A stretch of 61,163 nucleotides of DNA, the filler included, from Collodictyon triciliatum (taxonomy: Eukaryota), in NCBI GenBank assembly GCA_043381765.1. It is 4 parts of 4 records of this genome, joined end to end, with 100 filler letters (N's around TTAATTAATTAA, not from the genome) between each part and the next. Parts side by side here need not be neighbours in the genome. Positions count along the whole stretch, not along the records: positions 19,395 to 37,321 come from JBHJMP010000553.1; 3 more parts are not named here. One strand, 5' to 3'. Shown here in pieces: positions 6,022 through 45,505 of the stretch. How positions within the stretch are numbered: position 1 is the first letter of the stretch; each line of letters opens with the position of its first letter. Made by a program: the position numbers and the translations under genes. The notes under the pieces were generated by a model that worked only from the letters and a program-made list of their open reading frames with translations, did not search any database and had not been told where the DNA came from.

Positions 6022-9000
6022 TCACGCTCCAATCATCTGCTGTAAGCGAAGCACATCATCCTCGGCCCTGTCAAACCCAAGCTGCGCAGCCATCTGATAA
6101 TAGGCCAGCGCCTGGGGATAATCCTGCTCCACCCCGCTTCCAGCCTCCAGGCTTGTCGCATAGTTTGCAGCCCCGCTCGGGTCGCCGGCCTCGGCTGCGG
6201 CTCTGAAAAGCTCGGCTGCTTTCTGGAAGTCCTGGTTGACATACTTACCCTTCTTGTAAAACAGGCCCAGAGACGTCATTGCCTGCGGATGCCCGCTTTC
6301 GGCTGCTCTTCGGACGTAGTAGAACGACTGCTGTGCATTGGATTCTACGCCCACACCGCGCTTGTAAAAGAGAGCTACCGTGACTTGTGCTGATGTGAGT
6401 CCTGCGTCGGCAGCTTGTTTGTAGAAGTGAAACGCAAGGGCTTCGTCCTTGGCTACGGTCACCCCATTCTCATAGAACCAGCCGATTTTCTCCTGTGCCA
6501 AGGAGTCGCCATCCTCGGCTGCAATCTTGTAGTATTTAAACGCCTGTTCGTCGTTTCTCTCCACTCCAATACCGTTCTGGAAGCAGGCTGCAAGAAACGC
6601 CGCAGCCTGATTCTCTCCACGTTCAAAGGCATCCATGTATGACCGGAATGCGCGCTCATAGTTTTGCTCCGCACCACGGCCGTTTTCAAAGCACCAGCCC
6701 AGGTGAATGAGAGATTCGAAGTTGCCGTGCTCAGTGGAACGGACAAGCAAATCAACAGCCTTCCTGTCGTCTTGTTTGACTCCTTCTCCCGTAAGGTAGG
6801 CCAGGCCGAGGTGCATCTATCAAGTGAAACAGAAATTTGGCAAATATTCATTTGTGAATAAAGACTCTGGATTTACAAAATTAGATGCTACCAATAATAA
6901 ATAAGTAATGCGTGAATCAAGTCGATTTCTATGTATCAAGGCAAGTAAATGGCAAGATGAGAGGAAGTTTGCTTTGTTTTCGTTCTTTACTTGCGCAATA
7001 ACATCGCCTTTGGTAGCAGCCAGAGAAAAATAGTACGCAGCCTTCATCAGGTCCTTTTCAACTCCGTCACCGTCTCGATATAATATCCCCAGATTGAGCT
7101 GGAAATATAAAGTGCTTAGAATAGATGTGAGATGAAAGGAGTATGTACCCACACAACCAGGCTAATTTTTGGCGAGTACAGCGTGAGTGCACTTCTTTTT
7201 TTCTTTTAGTAAAAGTAAATGAATAAAAATAAAATAAAAAGAACAATTAAACAGGGCAGAGCTGATAGAATAAAAAGAGCTAAATAAACATTTTCCCCCT
7301 TTATCCCATTCCAAGAAGGAGCAAATAAATCATAAAGTAGAAACCTGTGCCAAAGAGTCCTGCTTTGCAACGGCCGACAAAAGTAATTTTACAGCCTCTT
7401 CCATGTTCTTATCAGCCCCGACACCGAATTTGTAACATAGTGCGAGATTCGACTGCGCTGTGGCATTCCCCATTTTAGCTGCTGTCTGGAAATACAGGAA
7501 TGCTTGCTCGTAATTCTTTTGAACACCTATTCCATTTGCAAAGCAATATCCAATATGTGTGAAAGCAACAGGGTCCTTTAGCTTGGCAGCCTCAGAGAAG
7601 TGACGTACAGCCGCTTTCACGTCTTGAGTCACACCAATTCCTTTCTGTGTATATTGATTTTAGTATAGTTAACTCTTGACGAAATGTAGAGGAGTATCAA
7701 ATGTTTTTATTTTGGAGACTAGTGTCGGCGGCCAATATAATACCGCCCCAATTGGGAGTAAAATTTGTAAAGGTGATAAGACAAAAGAAGGAGAAAAGAA
7801 AAGAAAGAATTAAAAGAAATGATTACATAAAGAGCCAGTGAGTGTTTCATCAAACAATTATTTTTTTTATTACCTGATAGCATATACCAACATTCACGAG
7901 ACCAGGTGGATATCTCTTATCGGCAGCAGCGAGGTAGCATCGATAGGCTTCTTCTGGGGACTTTGCAATACCTAGACCATGCTCGTGAAGGAACCCCAAT
8001 AATACGAAAGCTCTAATCATTATTTTTTTTTTATAATGAGGACCCAAATTACACTCCATATTGCACAATAGTAGTTTATCTTTTATCCTATAAACTTTGT
8101 AATAATTTCCCTCATATAATTACCATACAGACCTTGCATGCCCCTTCTCTGCAGCCAGTTTGTACAAACGTGCAGCTTCTGTGTAGTTCAGAGCAACTCC
8201 GCGTCCATTTTCATACATAGTCCCTAATTCTGTGATTGCTTTCAAGTCTCCTAGTATTTTATTCCGTCAACTGCTTAGTTGATAAACAAATAAGTCATAT
8301 CAAATATACCAATTCAGAAAAAAAAAATCAAGATAGGGTAGCTAGGAAGTGCAAAACTCTGGCAGTCTAACCCATCTGTTGATAGATTATACCTTGCGAT
8401 GCCGCTCTGCTAAATAGCTCGAATGCATGTGCATAATTTGCTGTTACTCCTAATCCATATGCATAACAGAACCCAAGACTTGCCTAGGGCATTATGAATT
8501 CATAATTTGAGTGTTTTTCTTAAAATTAATTGAAGTAAGCAAATAAGCAAATAAACCCGTGATACTTTACTGGGCACTTTGTTGATTTTGGGGCAAACAT
8601 AATAGTGGCAGAGATCATATTTCCTATTATTGTTTTTTTGTTTGCTTATTACTCTTATTAAAAGAAGCATCTGTCAGTTACCAAAGCGCGTATGTGACCG
8701 AGCGACGCAGCCTTTTGGTAAAACTCCACAGCTTTGATGAACGACACGGAAGTCCCGAACCCTTTCTCATAGCACCAACCGATGTTGGTCATGGCCTCAG
8801 GGTCCCCACGGGCCGCCAAGGAGAGATATTGCTGGAATATGCCGGCTGGAGGCATGTTTGCCATGAGACTGGGAAGCGGAGCTGCCACCTCATCCAGATA
8901 CTGTGGGGACGGGATTGGCTGGTTGAGGCTGCTGAACGGGTTTGGATTGGGAGCCGCAGTCGGCTGGATTTGCTGGCCATACGACCGCACTGCGCGAAGT

Positions 9001-12000
9001 GGCTGCTGCTGGCGGTCCCATGTCTCAAGGGGCTCGAAGGCCTGTGTGAGTTGGGGCCCCAGAGGAACAGACCGCCCAAAAGCAGGTGCCTGCTTGTGAG
9101 CTTGATGATAGATTGGCTGTTGTTGCAGCTGTGATACAGATGCGTGTGGGTTGTGTGTAATATGTGCCGTGCTTGCCTGGTGAGGAGTCTGGACATGACT
9201 CGGGAAACTGCGCTCTTGTGCAGCCATCGCTGGGATGTCATGTGGTATGCGCTGGTCGGGCTGTGTGAGTTCGAGAGAGCCGTGGGGGTAATTGCGGTGA
9301 TGATGCTGGTATTGTCTGTACCCCTGATGGGGCTCGTGTGAGACGGTCGGAACGTATTGGCGTGCTGAGTTTGACTGGAATATCGCTTCATCGATTTGCG
9401 GCTCGGCCTCTGCGTACTGACTGCCGTAAGGGTTGTGGTGCGTTGGTTGCTGACTGTAGTTGTGGACAGGCTTTGGCGGGGCGGTTTGGGCCTCGGTCGG
9501 GGCATATGGCGTCTCTGATGACTTGAGCAGGCGTATTTCCTTCTCAGCCATGCAAGCAACAAGATTGGCCTTTGCAACTTCGTTTCCGAGGTCGCTGGCA
9601 CGCTGAAAGTAGCGGATGGCTGTATCTATATCTTTTTCCACGCCGGTGCCGTTGGAGTAGCAGCACGCTAAGTTGGTCAGCGCAGCAGGGTCGTTCTGGT
9701 CACTTGCTACGCGGTAAAACTGAACAGCTAGTTTGTAGTCGATTTCAACCCCGAGTCCGCGCTCGTAGCACCAGCCCAGATTGGCTTGACTGCGCGGGTC
9801 ACCTTTGCCGGCAGCAACTTTGTACCATGTGACAGCGGCCGAGTGCTCTCCTACTTGGCTGTAGCAGAACCCAAGGTTGGTCTGTGCCCGTGTGTCGCCC
9901 TGGTAGGTGAGATGGCTTAATATCTGTGCATTTTGCGATAATAATCTGATAGCAACGAAGAGGAGGAAAAAGGGGAAATAGTAGAAAAGCATTTGTTTTT
10001 TGTTTTTTTCCAATGACGGAAAATTCTGTTCAAAATATTTGATGAAACTATTATGACTGGATCGCTGTTCACGAAAGATAACCAATGAATATCTTGGTCA
10101 ATTTGTATTATCAATCTTTTTGAAAGAAAGAAGAAAGAAAAGAAAAGAAAACACGATCAAGTGGGTCAATACCAGATTTGCTGCCTTTAGGTAAAACTCG
10201 ATGGCCTTTTGGGTGCTCAACTCAACACCATATCCCTTTTCGTAGCACCACCCTATATTTGAAAGAGACCGAGCGTGCTCATGCTTTGATGCGAACGTAA
10301 ACAGTTCGTACCCTCTTTCATGGTCTTGAACAGCACCGTGGCCCTCGATGAAGCAGATGCCGAGGTGGCAGATAGAGTCAAGGTCATGGAAATCTGCAGC
10401 CAAAGTCCACCATTCGACTGCTTGAGAATAGTTCTGGTCAAAGCCACATCCATTGTAATATGCATAGCCCATAATCAGCATAGCAAGAACGTTTCCTTGC
10501 TGCGCACAGCCACGAATCACATCCAAAATGCGCAAGAATTGCGGTTGAGGAACACTATCCAGAAAAGACCGCATTGCACGCTCGGAACCATCTTTCCATG
10601 TCGATGTTTCCTTCAGAAGTCGAACTAGATAGGTTGTTGTATATTTACTCTGGGTGGGGAGACTGTCCAACAAGATTCCAGTCAGCGCAGCTTCGCTCCC
10701 CGAGTGGTTAAATGGCGTACTCGAGTGTTTTGGTCGAAATGAATGTCTCTTCGGTTTTGCAGGTGGGTTGTCTTTTTCAGTTTTTGTGAAATTGATTTCT
10801 GGTCCAAGAGGATTACTTTCACTCAGCTTTCTTATATTTCCATATCTAACGTATTCATTTTCTCCTCCTCTATCCGAGATCTGAAATTGAACATGTTGAG
10901 CAGATTCTGCAGTAGTCTTTTTAGCTTGGGGGACTTCATAATCTTTTCTGACTAGGTCAGCAGGGGTAAAAGAACGAGCAATGGTTTGCTGCACATTAGG
11001 GGATGCATCTACGGGCTGTGAAAATCCCATAGTCTGTCCATATGCTTCGCGATTCTCAAATTTTTTTGGGAGAAAGTTGGAAGCGGCTGGCTTAGCTGCC
11101 TCCTGAATTACTGATGGGATTGTCTTGGAGCCGTAATGAGAGGGAAGAGAATGTTCTGGTTCATCGATATTGGTTTGGCTTGTAAACTGCTTGTCTGTTT
11201 GTGATTGTGATGCAAGCAGGGATTGCTGTGATGGTAAGAATGAATGAGTTTGACTCTGACTTTTTGTGATAACTTCCAGTAAAGTCTTTGAAGTATCCAA
11301 ATGTCGCGGGGTGACGTATATTTGATTCAAATATGGGGATGAAGATATTTGCGTTAGTTTGGAGGCATAGTCAACATACAGAGCTATCGACGGAACAGTA
11401 GTGTGGTCTGTAAGTGCTCTGATCTGGGGTAGGTATTGTAAGGTAAATCCGTTCCATTCCTTTTCAATAAGAGACCATTCCATGCTGATTTTGTCCCATT
11501 CCTTCTCCACATTATGTGACAAAAAGTCTCGTTGACTCAATAGCGATTCATAATGCTGTTGGTAAAAACGAGCCTGAGTTTCCAAATTCATTATTATCCT
11601 CGAGTCTGTTTCTTGTTCGATGGATGAGTATATGGTTTCTTTATCATTCTGGACTTTTTCAATCTCTTCAGCCAAGTATTGCCACTGCAGTTCAAGAAGT
11701 TTAAGCTGAGGGTGATCGGTGAACCTCCATTTATCACAAAGCTCTCCCAGCTGGATGGCCTTCTGTCTTAGTAATTTTTCAACTTTAAGCAACCCATCTG
11801 CGCTCGCTGAGCCACGAGCCGATAGGTTTACCTGCTGGTAGCTGACGGCTCGTATCAAATTCTGAATAATCTCATGTTCCGAAGTAATGATTCCGAGTCC
11901 AAATCTCCATTGCAAGTCGGGTGTTAGCGTCTTTCTTGAGGAGTAGAAATCCAGGAGCCCCACGAGGCGCTGATGATTGGATGACTGTCTTCCTTGGTAT

Positions 12001-12977
12001 GCCCATGTCTTGTGCTCTGGTTCATCTACACTGACTATAATGTGAGTGAGAAACTGGATAATAGAGATGGCAACTCTCCAATTCAAGCAAGAAAGGTTGT
12101 TGTGATTCAAGACCGGGACGAGACATTCGACTAGAAAAGGATACTGCTGGATGTATGGTGTTAATTTTTTGAGCAACAGAACGGTAGGAAACCAAGCTTC
12201 GAATGGGGTCATCTGAGAACAAGAAGCTGACGCCAATGTGATCAAATGTGACAGTATTGATATGATTTCTTCTCGTCCGGGAGAAAATGGTGAGTGTGAG
12301 GATGAAGCTGGGCCATCCTCAGCAAAGTGCGATGTTTGACCGTAGGCCTTATACATCTCCTTGGAACTTATGGACGAATGGGATTGCCCTGGCTGCGGCC
12401 ATTGAGACAGTTGCCTGAAGAGCTGGATTGCAGACGGGGGAAGCGAGAGAAGAGGCTCCATAGCAATGAGGCGGCGGCACGTCTCCCAACAAAAGTCCAC
12501 CGACAGCAGGACGTTTGGATCGAGCTTTGCAGGGAAGTTTCTGCAGTGGCCAATGACCACTTGCAAGGACTGCACGTCTTCTGGAGACAAAATCTGCGTT
12601 GCATCAGTCGGGATTGTCGAATGCAGCACGTTGTGTGGAGATGAGGACTCCAGGAACTGCATAACGAGCAGTTGGCACAGCTCCCGCAACAGCGCCACGG
12701 TCGGGGCAAGATGGGAGTCATGTCCTGGGAAAGAGTGTTGGCTGTGTTGCAGGATTTTCTGGCAAACAAACTCTGCGGCTGCGCATAGATCAGACACGGA
12801 CTGGATTTGAGAAAAGTGTGGATCTTGAAGGACTTGTGCGGCCTCCTTCAAAGCCTGCTGCTGCTGCGGGGTTTCCAGGGCACATTGCACAAGGATGCTA
12901 CGCAGATCGCGTCCGTTGGCACTTGCTGCGTCGTGTCGGGCCGGAATTACCGGAAACTCTGCTCGGCTAGCGTGCAT
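6022..12977 (-). CDS. Large multi-exon SEL1-like (SLR/TPR) repeat protein
   Basis: Many A..NLG.CY..G.GV.KD...A..YY..AA..G repeats across the exons between 6022 and about 10520, a Q/P-rich spacer, and a long non-repeat N-terminal exon starting at ATG 12977. Confidence 0.9.
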
Positions 12978-13729
12978 CTGCAGACGAAACAGCCGTTCGA
13001 GGTTAGTTTGCTAAGGGTGGTTAATAGTGCTCTTTTGAACGGCTTTTGTCGGGTCATAGGGCTAAAGGCAAAGTTGTGTTGGCTCTAACATTAATTAATT
13101 TTTTTTTTTTTTTTTTTAGAGGAAGTATTGATCTTTTTCTTTTCATTTTCTTTCTCTTCTTCTTTTCCTTGATCTCCGAAATAAGTGCAAAAACGATAGA
13201 AGGACTCGGTCGGTTGGATTAGCGTCACTTGGGTGGGTTTGGCTTCTTTGTTTTTTGGCTGGTTTGCTGGTTCGCGTTTGCTGTCCCGCGCCTTCGTCCT
13301 TGTCTGATTTGATCTGGGATGCACACAGGGGACATTTCTCTGTGATGGAGACACTATTATTCATGAGTTTATTTATAATCTGGAATATATAATATAATAC
13401 CTCAGTATCCCATTAAAACAAATTAAATACTAAATAGTATATCTACTATTACAACTAATACTACAATAAATAAAATACAAATCCATATTATACAGTTAAA
13501 AATATATGGTAATTCGTCTCATGTTCCTTTTCGCCTTTTTTTCGGTGAAACATCGGCTCGGCATTCGAGCAGTCATAATGTGGGTGGGACGCAAGGGTGA
13601 AGGTTGGATTTGAGCGCGACTTTGGTGTACCTGACCCGCCAAGCATATAACCCCCGCCTTTCCTTATCTTCATTCCTTTTTCTCTACAATTTCTTTTATT
13701 CCTTTATTCTTTTTTCTTATCCCTTTTTC

Positions 13730-14690
13730 TTTTCTTTTCATTTCTTTTCATTTCTTTTCATTTCTTTTCATTTCTTTTCATTTCTTTTTTCATTTCTTTT
13801 CATTTCTTTTCATTTCTTTTTTCATTTCTTTTTTCATTTCTTTTTTCCTTTCTTTTTCATTTCTTTTCTTTTCTTTTCTTTTCATTTCATTTCTTTTTTC
13901 ATCTCTTGTTTCCCTTTTTTTCTTTTTCCTTTATTCCTTTGCTCCTTTTTTCTTTTTTCATTTCTTTTTTCATTTCTTTTTTCATTTCTTTTTTCATTTC
14001 TTTTTTCATTTCTTTTTTCTTTTTTTCATTTCTTTTTTCATTCCTATTTCATTCCTATTTCATTCCTTTTTCTTTTTTTCATTTCCTAGTTTCTTTGTTC
14101 TTTTCTTATTCGTTTCTTTCTTCTTTCTCTTTTCTTTTTTCATTCCTATTTCATTCCTTTTTCTTTTTTTTCATTTTTCATTTCTTCTTTCTCTTTTCTT
14201 TTTTCATTCCTATTTCATTCCTTTTTCTTTTTTTCATTTTTCATTTCCTAGTTTCTTTGTTCTTTTCTTATTCTTTTTTCTTATTCTTTTTTCTTATTCT
14301 TTTTTCTTATTCTTTTTTCTTATTCTTTTTTCTTATTCTTTTTTCTTATTCTTTTTTCTTATTCTTTTTTCTTATTCTTTTTTCTTATTCCTTTTTCTTA
14401 TTCCTTTTTCTTATTCCTTTTTCTTATTCCTTTTTCTTATTCCTTTTTCTTATTCCTTTTTCTTATTCCTTTTTCTTTGTTTCTTTGTTTCTTTATTCCT
14501 TTTTTCCTTTTTTCCTTTTTTCCTTTTTTCCTTTTTTCCTTTTTTCCTTTTTTCCTTTTTTCCTTTTTTCCTTTTTTCCTTTTTCTTTGTCTCTTTGTTT
14601 CTTTGTTTCTTTGTTTCTTTATTCCTTTCTTCCTTTTTTTTCGCTGCCTTTGTTTCTTTGTTTCTTTATTCCTTTCCCCTTTTTTTTCGC
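13730..14690. repeat. Compound pyrimidine-rich low-complexity tandem repeat
   Basis: Successive arrays of TTTCA-, TTCTTA- and TTCC-containing units. Confidence 0.9.
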
Positions 14691-14746
14691 TGCCTTTGCG
14701 TCCTCGCTCTGCAACTTGGGTAACTTCATGTTTCAATCGACAACAG

Positions 14747-16993
14747 ATGGACCAAGAGCCCAAACGCGCTCGATTAGACCCCCTAGACGACTATGAGGCT
14801 GGCTTCTTGAAAACTTTGGAGAATGTGGGGGCGCAAGTAAAGCACATCCGGATCTTATACAATGCAGAGCGCTTCTTGCGCATTTATGCGGAAGGAAGGA
14901 AATCTGCCGACATTGAAACTCTGCACTCAGAGACCGGTGCGCACAGAGTGGAGGTCGATCGTAGAGCAAGTGACGGATTCACAATAGTCAGCCCCATCGG
15001 AATTCGCATTCTCGCACGTCATGCCACTATCTGGAGACGCATTCTGCATAATGTGGAGAGCATAGAGCTTGTGGTGGAGCAACGAAGTGATGGGGATGAT
15101 GGTCATACAGATGAAGGCTTTGGAGAAGCCCTTGCTCAAATTATCAGTGCAGATGTCGAATTAATTCATCTGTATCGGATCCGAATCGTGGTGGAGGGCA
15201 AGGCACGAAAAGCCTCCAGAAATGTTAGTATCATCGAAGCATTGTCAAGGATTAAGGAGATGAGAGGGCTTCATAGTATCGAATTAGTTGGCTTGGAGCC
15301 ACAAGCTGGATTCATCAAAGGATTAGACGCATTTCCAAGACTAAATCGTTTATTTCTCGAAAGGATGAGGGAGACCAGGATACCGGATGATATATTTGCA
15401 TATGCTAGCCAACTTGAGGATGTCTCGTTTGGGCAAAATCAACTTGGAGACATCCCTGACGGGCTTATCTTTTGCCCAGGATTAACACGCCTTGATGTTG
15501 GATTCAACAATCTTTCATCCTCTCCGCTATGGACAGGAAACTATGCTAATGCAGCCGGGCTGGTCTCAGTTTTGGAAAGACTTCGGTGGCTTGATATTTC
15601 TGGAAACGGATTTACAAATATCCCTGTTGTTGTTACCCAAGGCAAAAGACCAAACCTCAGAACTCTTATTGTTTCCAATAATATGATTAAACTACTTCCC
15701 GACGCCATGTTTTCGAGCTTGACCAACCTCGAGTGCCTCAATATTTCGCACAATCAGATAACATCGCTTCCAACCAATTTTGTAAAGCTGAATAACTTGA
15801 AGGAAATTAACATGTCTCAAAACCCAATACAAACCCCGCTGTCGATTCTTGCAAAGTGCAACGGTCTTCGTGTGATAAAAGCGGATCAGAATAGTGTTTC
15901 CATGTTGCCCCGCTGCCCTCCTAATATCGAAACTATAAGTCTTGTGGGAAACAGTATCACCCAATTACCAAAAGGTTTTTTCAATTACCATGCCTTACGA
16001 TGTCTCCATCTTTCTAGCAACGCAGTTTATTCCATCCCTGTAGACGTCACGACACTAACTACATGCGAAAACATTACTGCTCTGGGCCTTTCACTTAATC
16101 GATTCTCAGTTTTCCCCAAACCGGTCCTATCATTTCGAAATCTGAGGTCGCTCTCTTTCTCTCTTGACCCCCGTATATTCCAAAGAATTGAGAGAGCAAG
16201 AGAAGAAGAAATGGCTCGTATCAACCAATTAAGATATCACCGTCAACAGACTTATGGTGTAATGAATGTGCCTGTATTTTTCAATCCTATGCAGGAAATG
16301 GCACCGAAATATAAAGAGGAGGTCATAGCTCCAATACCACTCCGTCGAATTGCACAATCCCTCCCTTCACTTTATCATCTTTCCATTAACCTGTGTGGTT
16401 TGCGGTCTTTTAGGGTTGATGAGCTTTCTCGCCTAGACTCTTTGGAAATTTTGGACCTCAGCAATAATTATATAAGCCACGTCCCAGATTCAATTGGAGT
16501 AGGATTTCCTAAACTCCGCACCCTCAATCTGAGCCGAAATCAAATACGCATGTTGCCAGAAGATGTCATGATAGAACATATGACTAGACTGCAGTATGTA
16601 GATTTGAGCAACAATCATCTAACTGTCATTCCAGGGAAATTGAAAAAGTATCTTGGGTCCTCTTTGCTGGTACAAAACAATCCTTACTTGGAGGTAGATG
16701 CAAAACTTGCTGGGAACGAGCTGAAGTGGACAAACTTTAGCTGTTCGTCTTGCAACTATCCTGCACTGCCTGATGGACTATCCCTCTTCACAAACCTTAC
16801 ATCCATCCAAGCATACAATAATTTCATTTCTTGTTTGCCAGACCCGTTGTCGAAACTTTCTGGGATTGTTGATGTGGACTTTTCTTTTAACAAGTTCAGC
16901 CATTTTCCACTGCAGATTTTTGGGTGGTCTCGTCTTGTGCGGCTGTCTTTGAATTCTAATCAAATTACCTGCATAGATGATACATTTGCCTGA
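14747..16993 (+). CDS. Intronless leucine-rich-repeat protein (about 748 aa)
   Basis: About 20 LxxLxLSxNxIxxLP repeats. The likely start is MDQEPKRARLD at 14747; the upstream ORF extension is repeat-derived. Confidence 0.88.
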   Translation: MDQEPKRARLDPLDDYEAGFLKTLENVGAQVKHIRILYNAERFLRIYAEGRKSADIETLHSETGAHRVEVDRRASDGFTIVSPIGIRILARHATIWRRILHNVESIELVVEQRSDGDDGHTDEGFGEALAQIISADVELIHLYRIRIVVEGKARKASRNVSIIEALSRIKEMRGLHSIELVGLEPQAGFIKGLDAFPRLNRLFLERMRETRIPDDIFAYASQLEDVSFGQNQLGDIPDGLIFCPGLTRLDVGFNNLSSSPLWTGNYANAAGLVSVLERLRWLDISGNGFTNIPVVVTQGKRPNLRTLIVSNNMIKLLPDAMFSSLTNLECLNISHNQITSLPTNFVKLNNLKEINMSQNPIQTPLSILAKCNGLRVIKADQNSVSMLPRCPPNIETISLVGNSITQLPKGFFNYHALRCLHLSSNAVYSIPVDVTTLTTCENITALGLSLNRFSVFPKPVLSFRNLRSLSFSLDPRIFQRIERAREEEMARINQLRYHRQQTYGVMNVPVFFNPMQEMAPKYKEEVIAPIPLRRIAQSLPSLYHLSINLCGLRSFRVDELSRLDSLEILDLSNNYISHVPDSIGVGFPKLRTLNLSRNQIRMLPEDVMIEHMTRLQYVDLSNNHLTVIPGKLKKYLGSSLLVQNNPYLEVDAKLAGNELKWTNFSCSSCNYPALPDGLSLFTNLTSIQAYNNFISCLPDPLSKLSGIVDVDFSFNKFSHFPLQIFGWSRLVRLSLNSNQITCIDDTFA

Positions 16994-20641: not shown

Positions 20642-22137
20642 CTAGAACATAGAACACTTATTCTTTCTATCGGGTGATTTTGAAAATCCCAGAGTAATAC
20701 GGGCAGCATCTTCAAATACATTCCTTACATTCACTCGAGTTAGAGCAGATGATTCTATGTACTTTAAAGCACCAATATCGGAGGCCATTCGACGACCCTT
20801 TCGTTTGAAAGAAGAAGTATTTCAATACCAAATAGACCAATTGCATAGCGAATATTTTTTCCCTTTATTCGATTCAAAGTGCAAGAGGGTAAATTCACAA
20901 GGAGTATGAATCGAACAAAAGTACTGATATTAATACTAGTACTACTACAAATAACATCAATACTACTGCGACTAATACTAATAAATCAACTCCATTTTAA
21001 AAAGGACAACAATAATGAACAACATATATAGCTGTACACCTTGATTATTTTACCTCTTCTTTGGTTACAAAAAATGTCTCCTTGCTTATTTGAGTTTCGG
21101 TCAAATGCAATTCATCCCTTAAATCCACCTTTGTTCCAACCAATAAAACTGGGATGTTATTTGCATATATTTTCGCTTCAGGAGCCCACTATGAATGTTT
21201 TGAACAAATCAATTCGAAAGTGCTCAGGTAAATCAGAATATTGGAATACTGTCAATAAAAATACAGACCTTCTTCTTTACATTTTCAAATGAAGATTGGT
21301 TCATAACTGAGAAACATATGATAACAACATCTTTATTTCGATAAAACAGAGGATGTATGACACTTTCAAATTCATCGTGGCCTATGAGTGGCCATCAATA
21401 TAAAAAAAATGCGAACTTGAGTTCTATTCATAGTGCAAAGACCATTTCTTTGAATCGAATAAAGGAAAAAAATAGTGCAAAGACCATTTCGCAAAATAAA
21501 TAAATACATAGATGAAAATGACGAGGTATTTTTATCTCCATAATCTATAAAGAACAAATCCGCAATACTTTTTTTACACTTTGGAAAAGAACACAGTCCT
21601 ATGTTAAAGGATATATCTTTTGTTTCGAACGAACCTGTTGAGTCCGAGATTCCCAGTGTCACTTGCTCTCCATCAACATCTATTTCTCTCATCATATAAT
21701 CATAAACGGTCGGAATATATCCTTCAGGGAAAGTGCAGGATGTATAAGTCATCAATAGGGATGTTTTCCTATGGTATATGTGTATAAAGATTGCACATTA
21801 AGTTTGCACTCAGTACCCTCCACCAATCCATCATCTATCAATTAATTTTCAAGAGCCGACGTCATACTATTTACACATGGCTAATTTGTATTTTCGGTCC
21901 ATTTTAGACCTACGAGAAGATATACTTTCCATTCTCGAATGTTTTTCAATAAAGAGATCAAACCTTTTTATCCTTCTCTATTCGATTCAAGAGGAGGGTT
22001 ATATGCTTTTCTTGTGTAGTTGAAAAAAAAACATAGCAAAAGAAGACTTGGCCATTGAAGAATTCTTTTTAAACCCACCCACTTCCTGAATCTCCAACCA
22101 CAACGCACTCCAGGAGCTTCTTACTGGATGGATCCAT
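20642..22137 (-). CDS. Atypical Rho-family small GTPase, 198 aa, 5 exons
   Basis: Exons 22137-22079, 21768-21635, 21381-21269, 21188-21054 and 20797-20642 splice in frame. Motifs: CVVVGDSGSGKT, YIPTVYD, DSTGH, CFSV...SFENVKKKW, VGTKVDLR, YIESSALT and C-terminal CAAX CSMF. Confidence 0.93.
21430..21490 (+). mobile_element. 5'-truncated poly(A) retro-insertion with 19-bp TSD
   Basis: ATAGTGCAAAGACCATTTC at 21430-21448 and 21472-21490 flanks TTTGAATCGAATAAAGGAAAAAA. Confidence 0.85.
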
Positions 22138-22596
22138 GTTATCTAACCGCCTAAACTAACGATCAAAAAACCTGACTGTTTCACAGCACCTTGTTTCTCG
22201 ACTTTCTTCCATACCTCTATTCCCAAGAGGAGTAAACTCTGTGCGTATCTTTCAGGGTTTGGGCTGATTTTCTACGTGTGTTTAACATCATTAAATCTCG
22301 CTTGATCGAAAAAGCTTTGCGAGTATGATACTGCTGGCTTCTGACTTCGAAGAAGTGTGTGCTTCTTTTTTTTTTAAAAAAAAAAAAATCCAACAGTGAA
22401 AATGGTGATTGAATGAAGCGCTTCCTGAAGAAGATAATCACATTTAATTTTGCATTGTAAACCTTGAAAAGGGTAATGTAATGCCAGTGATCACATTTAC
22501 AAAATATTTGCAGTTTGTTTGTTTGTTTGTTTGTTTGTTTGTTTGTTTGTTTGTTTGTTTGTTTGTTGGCGTGAGGCATGAATTCTCAAAGGTTGA

Positions 22597-25500
22597 TCTA
22601 ATCTACAACTCACAATGTGAGTAAATGTGGTGATCACACCGAGAGAGACATAACGCAGGGGAGCAATAAAATAAAAAAAATAAATCATTATGAAAAAGAA
22701 AAAGTCTCTTTTGCTGAGAAATAAACACTGCGAAAGACAAAGGACACATTTTCTGAAAAGTAATGCTATTAAACTGGGGCTCTTTCCTTCTTCTCTCGAC
22801 CTGCCACATCCTGAAGCCTGAAAAAAAAAACACGAAAGCCATCGAAAAGGGCGATCCTGAGAAGGACGAGACCGCCTTCCAGGAGACCGGTGCCACAACC
22901 CTGCCCCGTGGGATGCCTACTAATCGTACGCAAAACGAGAAGGCTGACACAGCCAACCCGAAGAGCGAAAAGGTCACTTTATCACATCCCCTGCAATACA
23001 ATTTATGCACCAAGACACACCGACGAACAAGACGCCGGCTGCCACCGACTCGTGAGTACGAAAAACTACTAATAAGACGGAGCGGGCTCTTTGAAACGAA
23101 TAAATAACAACGGGGAATAAAGACTTCTTCTCCGCCACCCAGCCACCAAGTAGCGTCCGTGCAAACGATGGCCAGCGAACCAAAGCCAACATCTCCACCA
23201 TCCTGCACAAAGTTGAAAGGGAGAATAAAAAATAAAAATAACGGGGAATAAAAAAGACGGATCGAGCCCAAGCAACCGATCCACTTGTAGCAAGAGAGCA
23301 TGAGACACTGGAGAAAGGGTTTATATCATTCAAGCTCAAGCTATCAACTCATGGGTAGCAACATACTTATGAACATATTGCTCGATATTAGTTGTTCAAA
23401 TTCATTCACCCGTTTCTTTTTCTTTTTTCTTTCTCTTTTTCAGCCTGTAAATGGATAAACTTCATTACAAAGGTTGTGAGGAAGTTGGTTTTATCCCTTT
23501 CAAGGCATGACACTTTTTATACAACGAAAGTGTACCCATATATAATGCGGTTTATTGCACAGACAACCGTCGAGTTAAATCTGGATTGACAAGAATAGGA
23601 GCTTTGATAAATCCAAGAAGCAATTTGAAAAATATAATAGTATAGTTAGTATATATAATAAGGTTAAAAATACATAATAATCTTGACATATTCCTATAAT
23701 CAATTTATACTTTATTTACCATTTATGTAATATTAATTCAAAAATCCAAAAATCCAAACAAGCCGTTGTCTTTGCCCAGACAGAAACCACCCTGTAAACC
23801 TGCCACCAAATATGCATTTCAAAAAAGCATACATTCCGCACTTGCGGCAGTAATCATGTTGCTTGGGGCCGATATCTTGACTTTCAGTCGAAATGGCTAT
23901 ACGGCTGTCCTTTCGAACTCGCCGAGTCGGCTCTCAGTGTTTTGTCTCAAATCATTTATAAAAAACTTTGTGTGTTTGTTTGCCGCAATGCGCGCATTTT
24001 GAAAGTCTCGGTAAATGCTTAATTTTACATAAATTGATTTTATGCAGTTTTTAAATTGATTAATTGACTAAATTTTTATTAAGATTGAAAACTCGGTAAG
24101 GAAAAAAAAAAAGATTGAAAACTCGGTAGTTTTCTAAAGGAAAAAGTAAAACAAATACTTTTAGATGAAGAAAAGAAAACGCCTTGAGTCTGGGAATCTA
24201 AAGTCTGCAAAACCACACTATCCGAATGTGAAAACATCTCGAAAGTCGATTGTAAAGAATGCGAATGACTATGACAAAATCAACGATACGGTTTTATTGT
24301 GTCATAATTTGGTTACCGACACTTATCTGTTTGCAAGATGTTACATATTGAAATCACAACAGCTCCCAAGAATCGATGAAATTTTTTTTTTGTACGCTTT
24401 AAAGACAGTCGTAATAGTTTCACAAGATAGACCCACAAGATGAAAGCATCCAGAAATGAGAGAAGACATGATGACATTTTATCTCTACGATTTTCGATTC
24501 CTTTTGTCCCGATAAGAATGCTTTCCGTTGGTTGGACTGTCTCATGCATTACCGTACTAGGCGAAGCAAATGTTAACAGCTTATCATAATAACACTGAGG
24601 AACATTATGTAAAGAGGCTACTGCGCTTTACAAATCAAACAGTTCCTGAAGATGAGAATATTACAGAAGCTATTAAAAAAGGCAGAGTTACGAAGTTAAA
24701 AAAAGCCATCCTCAAGAAACTCGAAATACCGGAACAATAAAAAAAAAGTGGGCTGTAATACAATTGAATCGTATCATTATCAGCGATATTGTAAATGGTA
24801 TCGAATATGACGCCAAAGTCAATCCAAACAAGTACATTTCATGTCTGATTTACATGAATCGCATTTTTGGGGACATTAGAGCCAAAAATTTTCAACCAAT
24901 CTCTATAAGAGAACTAACAATATACCATGTTATATTACTCTAGATACCGCATGTTTGATAGATATATTAGTATTATCTAGAAAAAAAAATCATTAATGAA
25001 GAATATATCAGGTTGCAAAGAAACCCTATGGGATGACTTCTTTGAAATGAAGAAGAGGGTCTTTCATCAAAGAGATTACAATTTTAAATATATGATACAA
25101 ACAGACAGCTTGGCGGGTCATTATTGTTTGAAAAGAAATGAATTTCAAATTCAAAATTCAAATATAATCAAAAAAAAAAAAACCAAGAATATGTTTTATA
25201 TGAACTTTCCGAAGAGCATTTATCTTTATTAGCGAAAAAAAAAAGTTGGAGTGGACGCAGGCAAGTTTAATTTGGTTTACACGGTGGATGAGACAAGTAA
25301 GAAATTACGTTACACGGCACACCAAAGAAGACATGATAGCAAATCTCTTAAAAATCACAAAATACTCTTGCGCGAGAAAAAAGAAAAGTACAATGCTTCA
25401 GGGATATGTATGGCAACATGTTTACAAAGTGCTGTTTCTTTTGGTCCCATTACTTTTGAAGAGAATCAGTGGTTTGAGACATCAAGAGTATCTTTAATCG

Positions 25501-26132
25501 ATTTAGAGACATAATTGAGTAAACATAATTCATACACGGTCGATTATGAAAAATTTCGAAAATATGTATCTATGAAATCAAGATACCAGATAGAATTATC
25601 CAGATTTTATGAACAAGTAACTTTTCGAAAGATGAGATGGAGACAGTATGTTAATACAAAAAGAAGTGAAATTGTTTATGAACCGAATCGAAAAGACAAT
25701 TGGTAAGGATGTTGTACTGGCGTATGGAGACTGGAGCAGAAGATCTCCGATGAAACATTTTATGCCAACAACCGGAAGAGGATTACGAAAAATACTATCC
25801 AAACGTTTTGATACCAGTAAGTGTAAATGGATTTAGAACCTCCAAGGTGTGCTGCAACTGCGAAAAAGAACTGGAATATATGACACTGAAAGGAAACTCA
25901 AAAAATGTATAGATGTCTCATGTGTAAAGAATGCGATCGCTCAGAAAGCAAACAAAGTGTATTCTTGACAAGGGACTTTATCAGCACTAATAATATACTC
26001 AACAAAGTTCTTTTAACCCTTCAAAATATGCATACACCTCGCTCTAAAAAACAATAGGCTGTCAGGTCTTTCCTGGCAGCCTTCACCACTGCACGGTCAT
26101 GGTGAAAAAAGTGGTGAGACCTTGGATACTAG
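22597..26132 (+). mobile_element. Fanzor-carrying transposon, copy A (non-autonomous, possibly Helitron-type; ends inferred)
   Basis: 22690-24385 is clearly homologous to the reverse complement of 51231-52934. It contains the Fanzor pseudogene. Candidate ends are A|TC at 22597 or 22602 and hairpin + CTAG|T at 26129-26133. Confidence 0.65.
24165..26057 (+). pseudogene. Fanzor1 (TnpB-derived RuvC nuclease), frameshifted
   Basis: Fragments in successive frames: MKKRKR...VKTSRKSIVK; FKYMIQTD; RuvC-I VGVDAGKFNL; YTAHQRR; FRKMRWRQY; VVLAYGDWS...MPTTGRGLRKILSKRF; RuvC-II region VNGFRTSKVCCNC; CLMCKEC; RuvC-III TRDFIS.NNIL; stop TAG at 26055-26057. Several stops and frameshifts. Confidence 0.9.
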
Positions 26133-26152
26133 TGCACAAAGTTTACCAATGG
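26056..26152 (+). ncRNA. Candidate Fanzor omegaRNA (scaffold plus putative guide)
   Basis: 11-bp stem 26056-26066/26072-26082 with one G-U pair. Second stem 26082-26088/26100-26106, or 26083-26090/26110-26117. AGGTCT at 26064-26069 is complementary to AGACCT at 26117-26122. The structure starts at the Fanzor stop codon. Confidence 0.65.
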
Positions 26153-26595
26153 AAAGATTGATATACTCTAGTTTAAAAAATATTAGTGAAATAGTTTTAC
26201 TCTTGAAGCAAAGAATTGCTATACAAATTATATAATTTTCATATTTTCCAGAAATAATATCCGGTTGTGATGGTTTGAGTGATAGTCAAATTGGGGTGGC
26301 TGTGTCTGCTCTTGGGATGGTGAAGCACGCCAACCTCCCCGCCTCTTTTGCGCTTCTGATCACTTGCACCCACACAATTAAAGGAGGACCCATATGCTGG
26401 TCGGTCTTCAACAACGATGATATTAGCTCAGGCCTGATATGCACTTCTTAGCTTATATTCATGTTTATTAAGAAACACAAAAAATGACGGAGACTTCCCT
26501 TTCTTTTTTTTTTTCCTTTATTCGATCGAGATTTCCCTTTCTTATTCTTTTCCCTTTTTATTTTCTTTGTCTTTGTCTTTATTGGATTTCTTTTA

Positions 26596-26656
<61 letters not shown>

Positions 26657-26933
26657 ATCTACTGATCTTTTCCTTTGGTTGTGCTCTTAAAAGATTTAGC
26701 GCTGGTGGGGTTAAGCTCTCGTATAATGGCGTCTCTCTCTCTCTATTGAATTTTCATAATATTTGAAAGGTCTAACTTCACCATACATTCAAGAGAAACC
26801 CCTAGACTGGGGGCAGGTTTAAATAATACTCGGGTTAACTTGAAGCCTGAGAAGCCATAATACCATATTTATTTCCGAGGACCAGATATAATTTTTAGGA
26901 GCATAAAATAACTGATATGAATAGCAGAAATCT

Positions 26934-27022
26934 ATATAACATATATAACATATATAACATATATAACATATATAACATATATAACATATATAACATATAT
27001 AACATATATAACATATATAACA
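26934..27022. repeat. 9-bp tandem repeat (ATATATAAC)n
   Basis: About 10 copies. Confidence 0.9.
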
Positions 27023-27239
27023 TACAAAACATACAAAATAACTATACCAGTAAATAAAATAACCGAAAATAAAATAAATAAAGGATTAACTATGACTCTA
27101 TCATAACATAATCTGCTATAATAATTAAAACGAACATATATTTTCCTTTATTCGATTCAAAAAAAAAAAGAACATATACATATATGAGAAGATCAAGCCA
27201 TATAATTAAGGCTTAGTCATTTAGGTCTCGGAACCATTA

Positions 27240-28194
27240 ATGGATGGATCTGGACTTCCCAACCTCTCCTTGCATACATCTACGATTACAACTGGTCTAG
27301 AATCATCAGAAACGTTTTTTCAGACTCAAAACCCACAGCTAAGACTACCTTCCCTCAACGTAAAATATGAATATAATCTCCATCAGATGTTATATTTTAT
27401 TTATCTAAATTAAGTTTTTTAGGACGTATTTTTTTAAAATATTAATTGATAAACCCTTGATCAAAAATAGCCTTTTTTTTATATAAATACGAAATATTAA
27501 TTGATTTTCTTACATTTTTCATGAAGGTCAAGTTAGATGCTGTCAAACCAGTTATTCCTGGAGACGAGCATATTATTCACGATGAAGATAACATACTCGG
27601 ACCACGAGCAACTTATGGATATCAAAAAAATGATAGAGAATATACAAAGGTTCACGCTGTTTTGAAGGCAATACGGCAACGTATGTCTAGTTTCATAAAC
27701 ATTTCTATCATATTTTTTTTATTCTTCCTTTCAATTTTGTGCCTAAATATTTCTATCATATAAGTTTATTCTCGCCTCCAATACGTTCGTATATCAAAAA
27801 AGGATAATTTTTAATTACCCTGTCATTTTTTTTGTCATAAATCAGGAAATGTCTCATAGATGAGACTTTAAAATAAAAAAATGTGTTTACTTAGACGAAA
27901 TCAACAACTTTCGATTAATTAAATAATTTTTGACTTTTCTTTCTTTCATTCTTACGTTTCTGTTTTTTCCTATCAGTCAGAATTTTTTTTATCTCTCTGA
28001 AAGTAAAATAAAGTAAAAATAAACAGAAAAGACCTCGGTATACTTTGATCTTCTAGCAGATCTAACTGCAGAGCAGCTTCTTATACTCCACAAAGAGTTT
28101 TATCGGAATGGATCTTTGACTATGTGCGAGGTATTCTTCATTCGTGATGAAAGGGAATACTATTGAAAAGTTTCATTCCGAAATGATACGTTCG

Positions 28195-45439: not shown

Positions 45440-45505
<66 letters not shown>

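Follow-up and report, generated by a model that had tools for sequence, protein, structure and literature searches.

A probable omegaRNA scaffold abutting a decayed Fanzor1 gene of Collodictyon triciliatum, and its counterpart in a sister family

Among characterised omegaRNAs, that of the Fanzor1 nuclease SpuFz1 comes closest to the RNA considered here, as far as it is described in two recent papers (Saito et al. 2023, PMC10432273; Xu et al. 2024, PMC11423790). The omegaRNAs of SpuFz1 (90 nt) and PpFz1 (75 nt) are reported to form two stem-loops ahead of the guide, with SL1 at the 5' end (PMC11423790), and the right inverted repeat of the SpuFz1 element is described as lying within the scaffold (PMC10432273). 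Non-autonomous 'ghost' copies of SpuFz1 retain the RNA part (PMC10432273, PMC11423790). In GtFz1, the guide RNA was found to come from the 3' end of the element, where it overlaps the end of the nuclease ORF by 17 aa (PMC10432273). An association of Fanzor with Mariner/Tc1 elements is likewise already known, according to a further report (PMC10530073).

The locus analysed here lies in a stretch of 61,163 nucleotides of the Collodictyon triciliatum assembly (hereafter the window), a draft scaffold with 13 runs of N of 10-320 nt. It had been predicted that an omegaRNA scaffold starts at the stop codon of a Fanzor gene and ends at 26132, with the guide following at 26133-26152. All the sequence features named in that prediction within 26056-26152 are present where they were placed. 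The stretch adjoins the 3' end of a Fanzor1-type gene on the same (+) strand and its helices match a covarying structure in a sister family, which upholds the idea of a scaffold at the Fanzor stop but not the proposed right end. The helices, their conservation, their homology to this covarying structure and their strand suggest that the interval from 26056 to about 26160 (+) is probably the guide-RNA (omegaRNA) scaffold of a Fanzor1 transposon family (Table 1). Elsewhere in the window, long open frames (6022-13010 on the - strand, 14252-16993 on the + strand and 21233-21797 on the - strand) encode Sel1 repeats, leucine-rich repeats and Ras-family GTPase fragments. These frames are GC-richer than the AT-rich spacers between them, and microsatellites and long poly-T tracts (45442-45502, 26599-26657, 2060-2320 and others) are found as well, the (GT)n and the T runs each being about 60 nt long. 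The context looks like that of a eukaryotic nuclear genome with few introns.

Table 1. Coordinates of the features discussed, counted along the whole window.
Feature	Position	Strand	Remarks
5' part of repeated unit	22690-24391	+	second copy in window
Second, truncated copy of 5' part	52924-51223	-	76-80% alike to 22690-24391
Fanzor1-type nuclease gene, decayed	24165-26057	+	nine frame pieces, two in-frame stops, frame changes
TAG stop of the window's copy	26055-26057	+	in model alignment, in phase with Arg codon of sister RP motif
SL1, 11-bp hairpin with loop TCTTT	26056-26082	+	fold, model R1, family variants
P2, outer stem TCACCACT/AGTGGTGA (26083-90 with 26110-17) and weak inner stem (26092-95 with 26100-04)	26083-26117	+	
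Remainder of family-shared 3' part	26118-26160	+	right limit approximate (26153-26167)
Guide of the original prediction	26133-26152	+	within shared part
Candidate flank-derived guide	26161-26180	+	tentative, from contigs only, if right end near 26160

The gene had been called a Fanzor and is indeed a Fanzor1 homologue, but in the window's copy it is a pseudogene, homologous over its whole length and with a broken reading frame. There is no long ORF in the gene region; stop-to-stop frames between its two limits yield the nine pieces, which are interrupted by TAG at 25230 and TAA at 25512 and by frame changes, those directly seen being near 25690, 25808 and 25905. Eight of the nine pieces match, in order, a protein of 634 aa (P0004) from residue 3 to residue 602 (3-88, 138-184, 200-264, 369-413, 425-479, 473-525, 526-555 and 556-602), and the ninth lies inside a read-through translation of 24981-25706 with stops written X (P0001), whose match to P0004 spans residues 279-414 (E 2.1e-27). 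P0001 has 447 homologous proteins at E<=1e-3, many of them of 600-700 aa. P0004 in turn matches the solved Fanzor1 structures of SpuFz1 (8gkh, 9.2e-37), PpFz1 (9cf0, 7.2e-34) and GtFz1 (9cer, 7e-16), and Cas12f1-like_TNB exceeds the Pfam cut-off in two of the eight relatives scanned. Searching the PDB with P0001 itself found nothing, Pfam returned nothing relevant for the nine frame pieces, no locus was confirmed in viral contigs searched with P0001, and homologue searches with the last frame piece (among longer proteins) and with the open frame 26017-26232 found none. The terminal TAG is retained in one contig of run X3 (one of the four public runs introduced below). One contig of run X6 apparently has CAG in its place, going by loose-end letters, and its frame would continue to the TGA at 26103; the position of the stop may therefore vary among copies.

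The gene is part of a larger repeated unit. Its N-terminal 73 aa recur at 51449-51231 with 77% identity, in the truncated second copy that stops at a poly-T tract and N gaps, and this copy implies that the repeated unit extends 1.5 kb or more upstream from where Fanzor starts. An inverted repeat between the 3' end and 22000-24300 was looked for and only matches of 10-13 nt were found (E 0.27-1.1), the best inverted matches in the window being one of 10 nt and one of 12 of 13 nt at E about 1. No transposase remnant was found in the window, and blastn against a phage collection gave no match.

Immediately 3' of the gene, the arms of SL1, AGGCTGTCAGG and CCTGGCAGCCT, form 11 pairs around the loop, and the hairpin shares two bases with the TAG. 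One of the pairs, T26062-G26076, is the G-U pair that had been said to work on the + strand only. It is present, and the - strand fold is weaker: folded alone on the + strand, SL1 reaches -19.9 kcal/mol (z -6.76, with none of 200 shuffles as good), while its reverse complement gets to -14.9 kcal/mol and contains an internal mismatch. Among the uninterrupted hairpins of at least 10 pairs listed, none has more than the seven G-C pairs of SL1. P2 follows at a spacing of 0 nt; its outer stem is of 8 bp, and these 35 bases 3' of SL1 fold with a z of -2.35. Two second stems had been proposed to compete, TTCACCA/TGGTGAA and TCACCACT/AGTGGTGA. Both exist, but the minimum-energy fold uses, and comparison favours, the latter, and the former would be broken by the family variant 26101 G>T. 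The arms of a further proposed helix, the pseudoknot AGGTCT/AGACCT, are present (26064-69 and 26117-22), but the helix is unsupported because the sister-family alignment has no counterpart of it. As a whole, 26056-26152 folds at -36.4 kcal/mol with a z of -3.16 on the + strand versus -2.33 on the - strand, and 26118-26182 folds no better than its shuffled versions do (z +0.65). The description of this stretch as a GC-rich island in AT-rich DNA was accurate, with 52% GC in 26056-26132 as against 0.33 on the left (25900-26055) and 0.27 on the right (26133-26290). An Rfam search at E<=1 over 23000-28000 matched nothing, and the hairpin pattern, searched as DNA in viral contigs and in genome contigs, had 0 matches in each.

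Other copies of the family were seen in contigs from four public runs (X1, X2, X3 and X6) aligned at 80% likeness, each of the runs sharing a small share of words with the window (<=0.20). None of the runs listed is recorded as RNA, X3 and X6 being RNA by guess only. With 202 contigs aligned from X3, 167 from X6, 49 from X1 and 26 from X2, the window's Fanzor1 family is clearly multi-copy. Other copies appear, from these contigs, to lack several defects of the window's gene: every contig that covers 25512 reads G there (GAA, not TAA), one T near 25812 is absent from most contigs in three of the four runs, some contigs differ from the window at the 25670-71 and 25905 indels, and 25981 T>A with 25986 A>G changes RDFISTNNI into RDFNSANNI. 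The family differences considered here are those listed, a subset beyond which there are 247 further differences and 28 further indels. The best supported of those listed in the candidate region are 26063 C>T, 26064 A>G, 26091 G>A, 26096 G>A, 26099 A>T, 26101 G>T and 26133 T>C. Only the first two of these fall in SL1, where they turn C-G into U-G and A-U into G-U and thus keep pairing on the + strand only. In P2, 26091, 26096 and 26099 are unpaired and 26101 G>T, a frequent change in three of the four runs, disrupts one pair of the weak inner stem, while the outer stem has no best-supported change among the differences listed. As far as these differences go, the stems are kept among family copies. 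Four deletion joints (25811>26047, 25811>26058, 25859>26047 and 25985>26056, each in one contig per run) all retain the sequence from SL1 (~26047-26058) rightwards.

The same contigs bear on the right end of the shared part, their end points being inferred from the distance-to-end columns of summary tables. Those with the 26091, 26096 or 26133 variants end at 26159 in X1, 26160 in X2, 26167 in X3 and 26160-61 in X6. The 26133 T>C change is read in four contigs of X3, four of X6, two of X2 and one of X1, all continuing 26-34 letters beyond it. Summed depth in X3 and X6 falls from 290 and 170 (26061-26101) to 38 and 44 (26102-26142) and then to 10.5 and 11 (26143-26183), and is zero in both runs from 26184. 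Family likeness thus appears to extend to about 26160, and contigs of four runs that are alike to about 26159-26167 speak against a scaffold end at 26132. The proposed guide at 26133-26152 is probably scaffold rather than guide because it falls inside the family-shared part, and a guide, if there is any, probably starts near 26160. Two further possibilities were considered and rejected. A right end at 26179 is unsupported since the 3' half of the full sister model (R2) adds no score, and an 11-nt direct repeat, TGCACAAAGTT (23204-23214 and 26133-26143; E 0.07 in a 2.3-kb search), was dropped as a candidate target duplication, family likeness passing 26133.

A sister Fanzor1 family, found by a locus search with a C-terminal protein alignment (A2, a wider alignment, A1, being too variable), provides the means to interpret this fold. 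In metagenome contigs 10 loci were confirmed among 132 pattern matches and in viral contigs 4 among 34, two of the viral loci being on the same contigs as metagenome loci L002 and L007 and one bearing a giant-virus bin name; in genome contigs there were 24 pattern matches, none of which was confirmed. The loci (L001-L014) are on long contigs, e.g. L007:1336-3287 and L005:378-2654. Six of them have intact ORFs of 641-699 codons (counted stop to stop), and upstream in these elements there is a divergent DDE_3 (Tc1/mariner-type) transposase (1.3e-13). The sister protein ends in ...RPSVFRRTEGLTITPAGEKVGQSVDFTVGKATVS, after which there are about 50 conserved bases and then complete divergence between loci. 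The conserved 3' part, which begins at the RP codons and reaches the right end, is about 150 nt long, and in all six locus pairs compared by BLAST the likeness ends no more than 1 nt from there, with different flanks beyond. In L005, a 32-nt perfect inverted repeat was found, its right copy forming the 3' end of the conserved RNA part, inside the scaffold. The RNAalifold prediction places a hairpin of 11 bp within the RP...EG codons, directly adjoined by TGACC/GGTCA around CCCC/GGGG, a structure that overlaps the last ~34 codons of the ORF. In its 81-position 5' part, 97.5% of cells pair versus 91.7% in shuffled alignments, and 8 of 22 pairs are changed on both sides versus a shuffled mean of 2.3, values that none of 500 shuffles reached in either case; slid controls were 42-52% paired. 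The compensatory changes in L005 are non-synonymous (S to D with E to S), and therefore selection acts on the RNA.

The window's fold was compared with this structure using a covariance model of the first 81 positions of the sister alignment (R1), run unfiltered on both strands of the whole window. The best match, at 26055-26133 (+), is end to end and scores 19.4 bits with a rough E of 0.0036, the next match in the window scoring 9.6 bits, and no - strand match at 26055-26133 is found among the matches listed. It was found in the unfiltered run only, cmsearch with default filters having missed it, and the score is modest, since the sister's own palindromic SL1, in its reverse-strand copies, also yields 19-20 bits. 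Of the 22 model pairs, 21 agree with the window in this alignment, itself fitted to the model, and 11 are changed on both sides relative to the commonest sister pair. SL1 accounts for 7 of these changes and fits all 11 pairs of helix 1, and all five model pairs of P2a fit, the central one being C-G in the window versus G-C in 9 of 9 sister rows. Covariation had been named as a check on the stems: it is found in the sister family, but changes within the window's own family, among the differences listed, are only one-sided and wobble-keeping. The two families share an SL1 of 11 bp that directly adjoins P2a (TGACC/GGTCA in the sister, TCACC/GGTGA in the window), a similar linker (GAGAAAGTTGGTCA in the sister, GAAAAAAGTGGTGA in the window) and an equal codon phase through SL1, and the window's GGTGAAAAAAGTGGTGAGACCTTGGATACTAGTG is recognisable as the GEKVGQSVDFTVG-coding stretch of the sister. 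They differ in that the sister ORF runs on across SL1, P2 and P3 to a stop about 50 nt short of the right end, whereas the TAG of the window stands at the foot of SL1. In the sister, the scaffold measures about 150 nt and has further hairpins, P3 and P4, both of which the window lacks; its 3' hairpins are without a counterpart there, since R2 (152 positions) scores only 18.3 bits on the window, no more than the 5' part alone. The transposase and the 32-nt inverted repeat of the sister were also not found in the window. In the window, the RNA helices are kept where coding has been lost, the frame being split and stopped at 26055 and 26103.

Since the sister's scaffold is at the same time coding sequence, the stretch might instead owe its conservation to being a present or recent Fanzor C-terminal coding tail, with incidental helices. 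The same positions do encode RPSVFRRTEGLTITPAGEKVGQSVDFTVGKATVS in the sister family, frame +1 of the window reads GEKSGETLDTSAQ where the sister has GEKVGQSVDFTVGK, and the X6 contig with CAG for TAG, if its loose-end letters are correct, would be open to 26103. Yet the ancestral frame is split in the window, running in frame 0 through SL1 and the 5' strand of P2 and in frame +1 past the loop, in addition to the two stops; the three frames after 26020 have no significant protein match (best E 0.067, to a region other than the tail); and close relatives end 5-25 aa past the RP motif with unrelated tails. Together with the non-synonymous compensatory changes of the sister, this makes a coding tail an unlikely explanation.

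That the palindrome and the next stem function at the DNA level, whether as subterminal binding sites or as a terminal structure recognised by a transposase, is slightly less probable still. Sister elements do have a transposase and a terminal inverted repeat near the region, and the deletion derivatives that keep the 3' part could equally be explained by transposon ends. However, SL1 and P2 are to the left of the sister's inverted repeat rather than within it, the 32-nt repeat stands alone at the left end of L005, where neither SL1 nor P2 has a copy, and the G-U pairs of the window and of most family contigs work only in + strand RNA. It is very improbable that SL1 is a chance or generic 3'-UTR hairpin with no relation to Fanzor function, even though there are other hairpins of at least 10 pairs in the window and the R1 E-value, itself rough, is only about 0.004: position, strand, the 0-nt spacing between SL1 and P2 and the length of 11 bp agree with the sister family, hundreds of family contigs conserve the stretch, and SL1 has a z of -6.76.

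Taken as a guide-RNA scaffold, the stretch would consist of a 5' hairpin (SL1), P2 and about 40 more conserved bases up to the right end of the element. By analogy with characterised Fanzor1 systems, from which we infer transcription, protein binding and guide use, the RNA would be produced from the 3' end of the Fanzor mRNA or transcribed together with it, the RuvC/TNB face of the nuclease would bind SL1 and P2, and the guide would be made of 15-20 bases of flanking DNA past the right end, placed tentatively near 26160. Since the nuclease gene is a pseudogene, the scaffold would be either a relic or open to use only by a nuclease that an intact copy elsewhere provides. Such copies, should the source organism have any, could offer a further compact RNA-guided nuclease together with its guide scaffold. 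A wider reading, which we put forward tentatively and still hold to be doubtful, is that a family in a eukaryotic genome and a giant-virus-borne Tc1/mariner-Fanzor1 family share a homologous guide-RNA core (an 11-bp SL1 abutting P2), which is the C-terminal tail of the protein in the virus-borne family and has been freed from coding by the stop at the foot of SL1 in the eukaryotic one. If true, this would document an exchange of Fanzor1 elements between virus and host, the unit under selection would be the RNA rather than the protein tail, and the scaffold would be a compact one, of at most roughly 105 nt. For the annotation of the locus, the gene should be recorded as a pseudogene, TCACCACT/AGTGGTGA as the preferred second stem, and the guide, if any, as starting near 26160 instead of 26133.

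The find leaves the general picture unchanged, because Fanzor1 guide RNAs are known and their 3'-end position is established. It does add a family whose scaffold core can be set beside that of a sister family still using these bases for coding, and the comparison of window and sister is a clean natural case of selection on RNA pairing over protein sequence. With respect to GtFz1 and the ISDra2 TnpB, as described, it is the sister family that shares a guide RNA at the 3' end of the element overlapping the end of the nuclease ORF, whereas in the window the overlap is reduced to two bases of the stop codon. SpuFz1 differs from the window in an SL1 reported to be of 7 bp instead of 11 bp, in a 75-nt scaffold as against a shared part of about 105 nt, in its inverted repeat, none having been found in the window, and in that the window's gene is a pseudogene; the SpuFz1 layout, as published, with the right copy of the inverted repeat inside the scaffold, is matched by the sister family (L005). 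The window nevertheless has in common with SpuFz1 a related protein family (P0004 against 8gkh) and, as far as the published accounts go, the retention of the RNA part in reduced copies, the deletion joints in the window's family keeping the sequence from 26047-26058 onwards, and with both SpuFz1 and PpFz1 the layout of two stems with SL1 at the 5' end.
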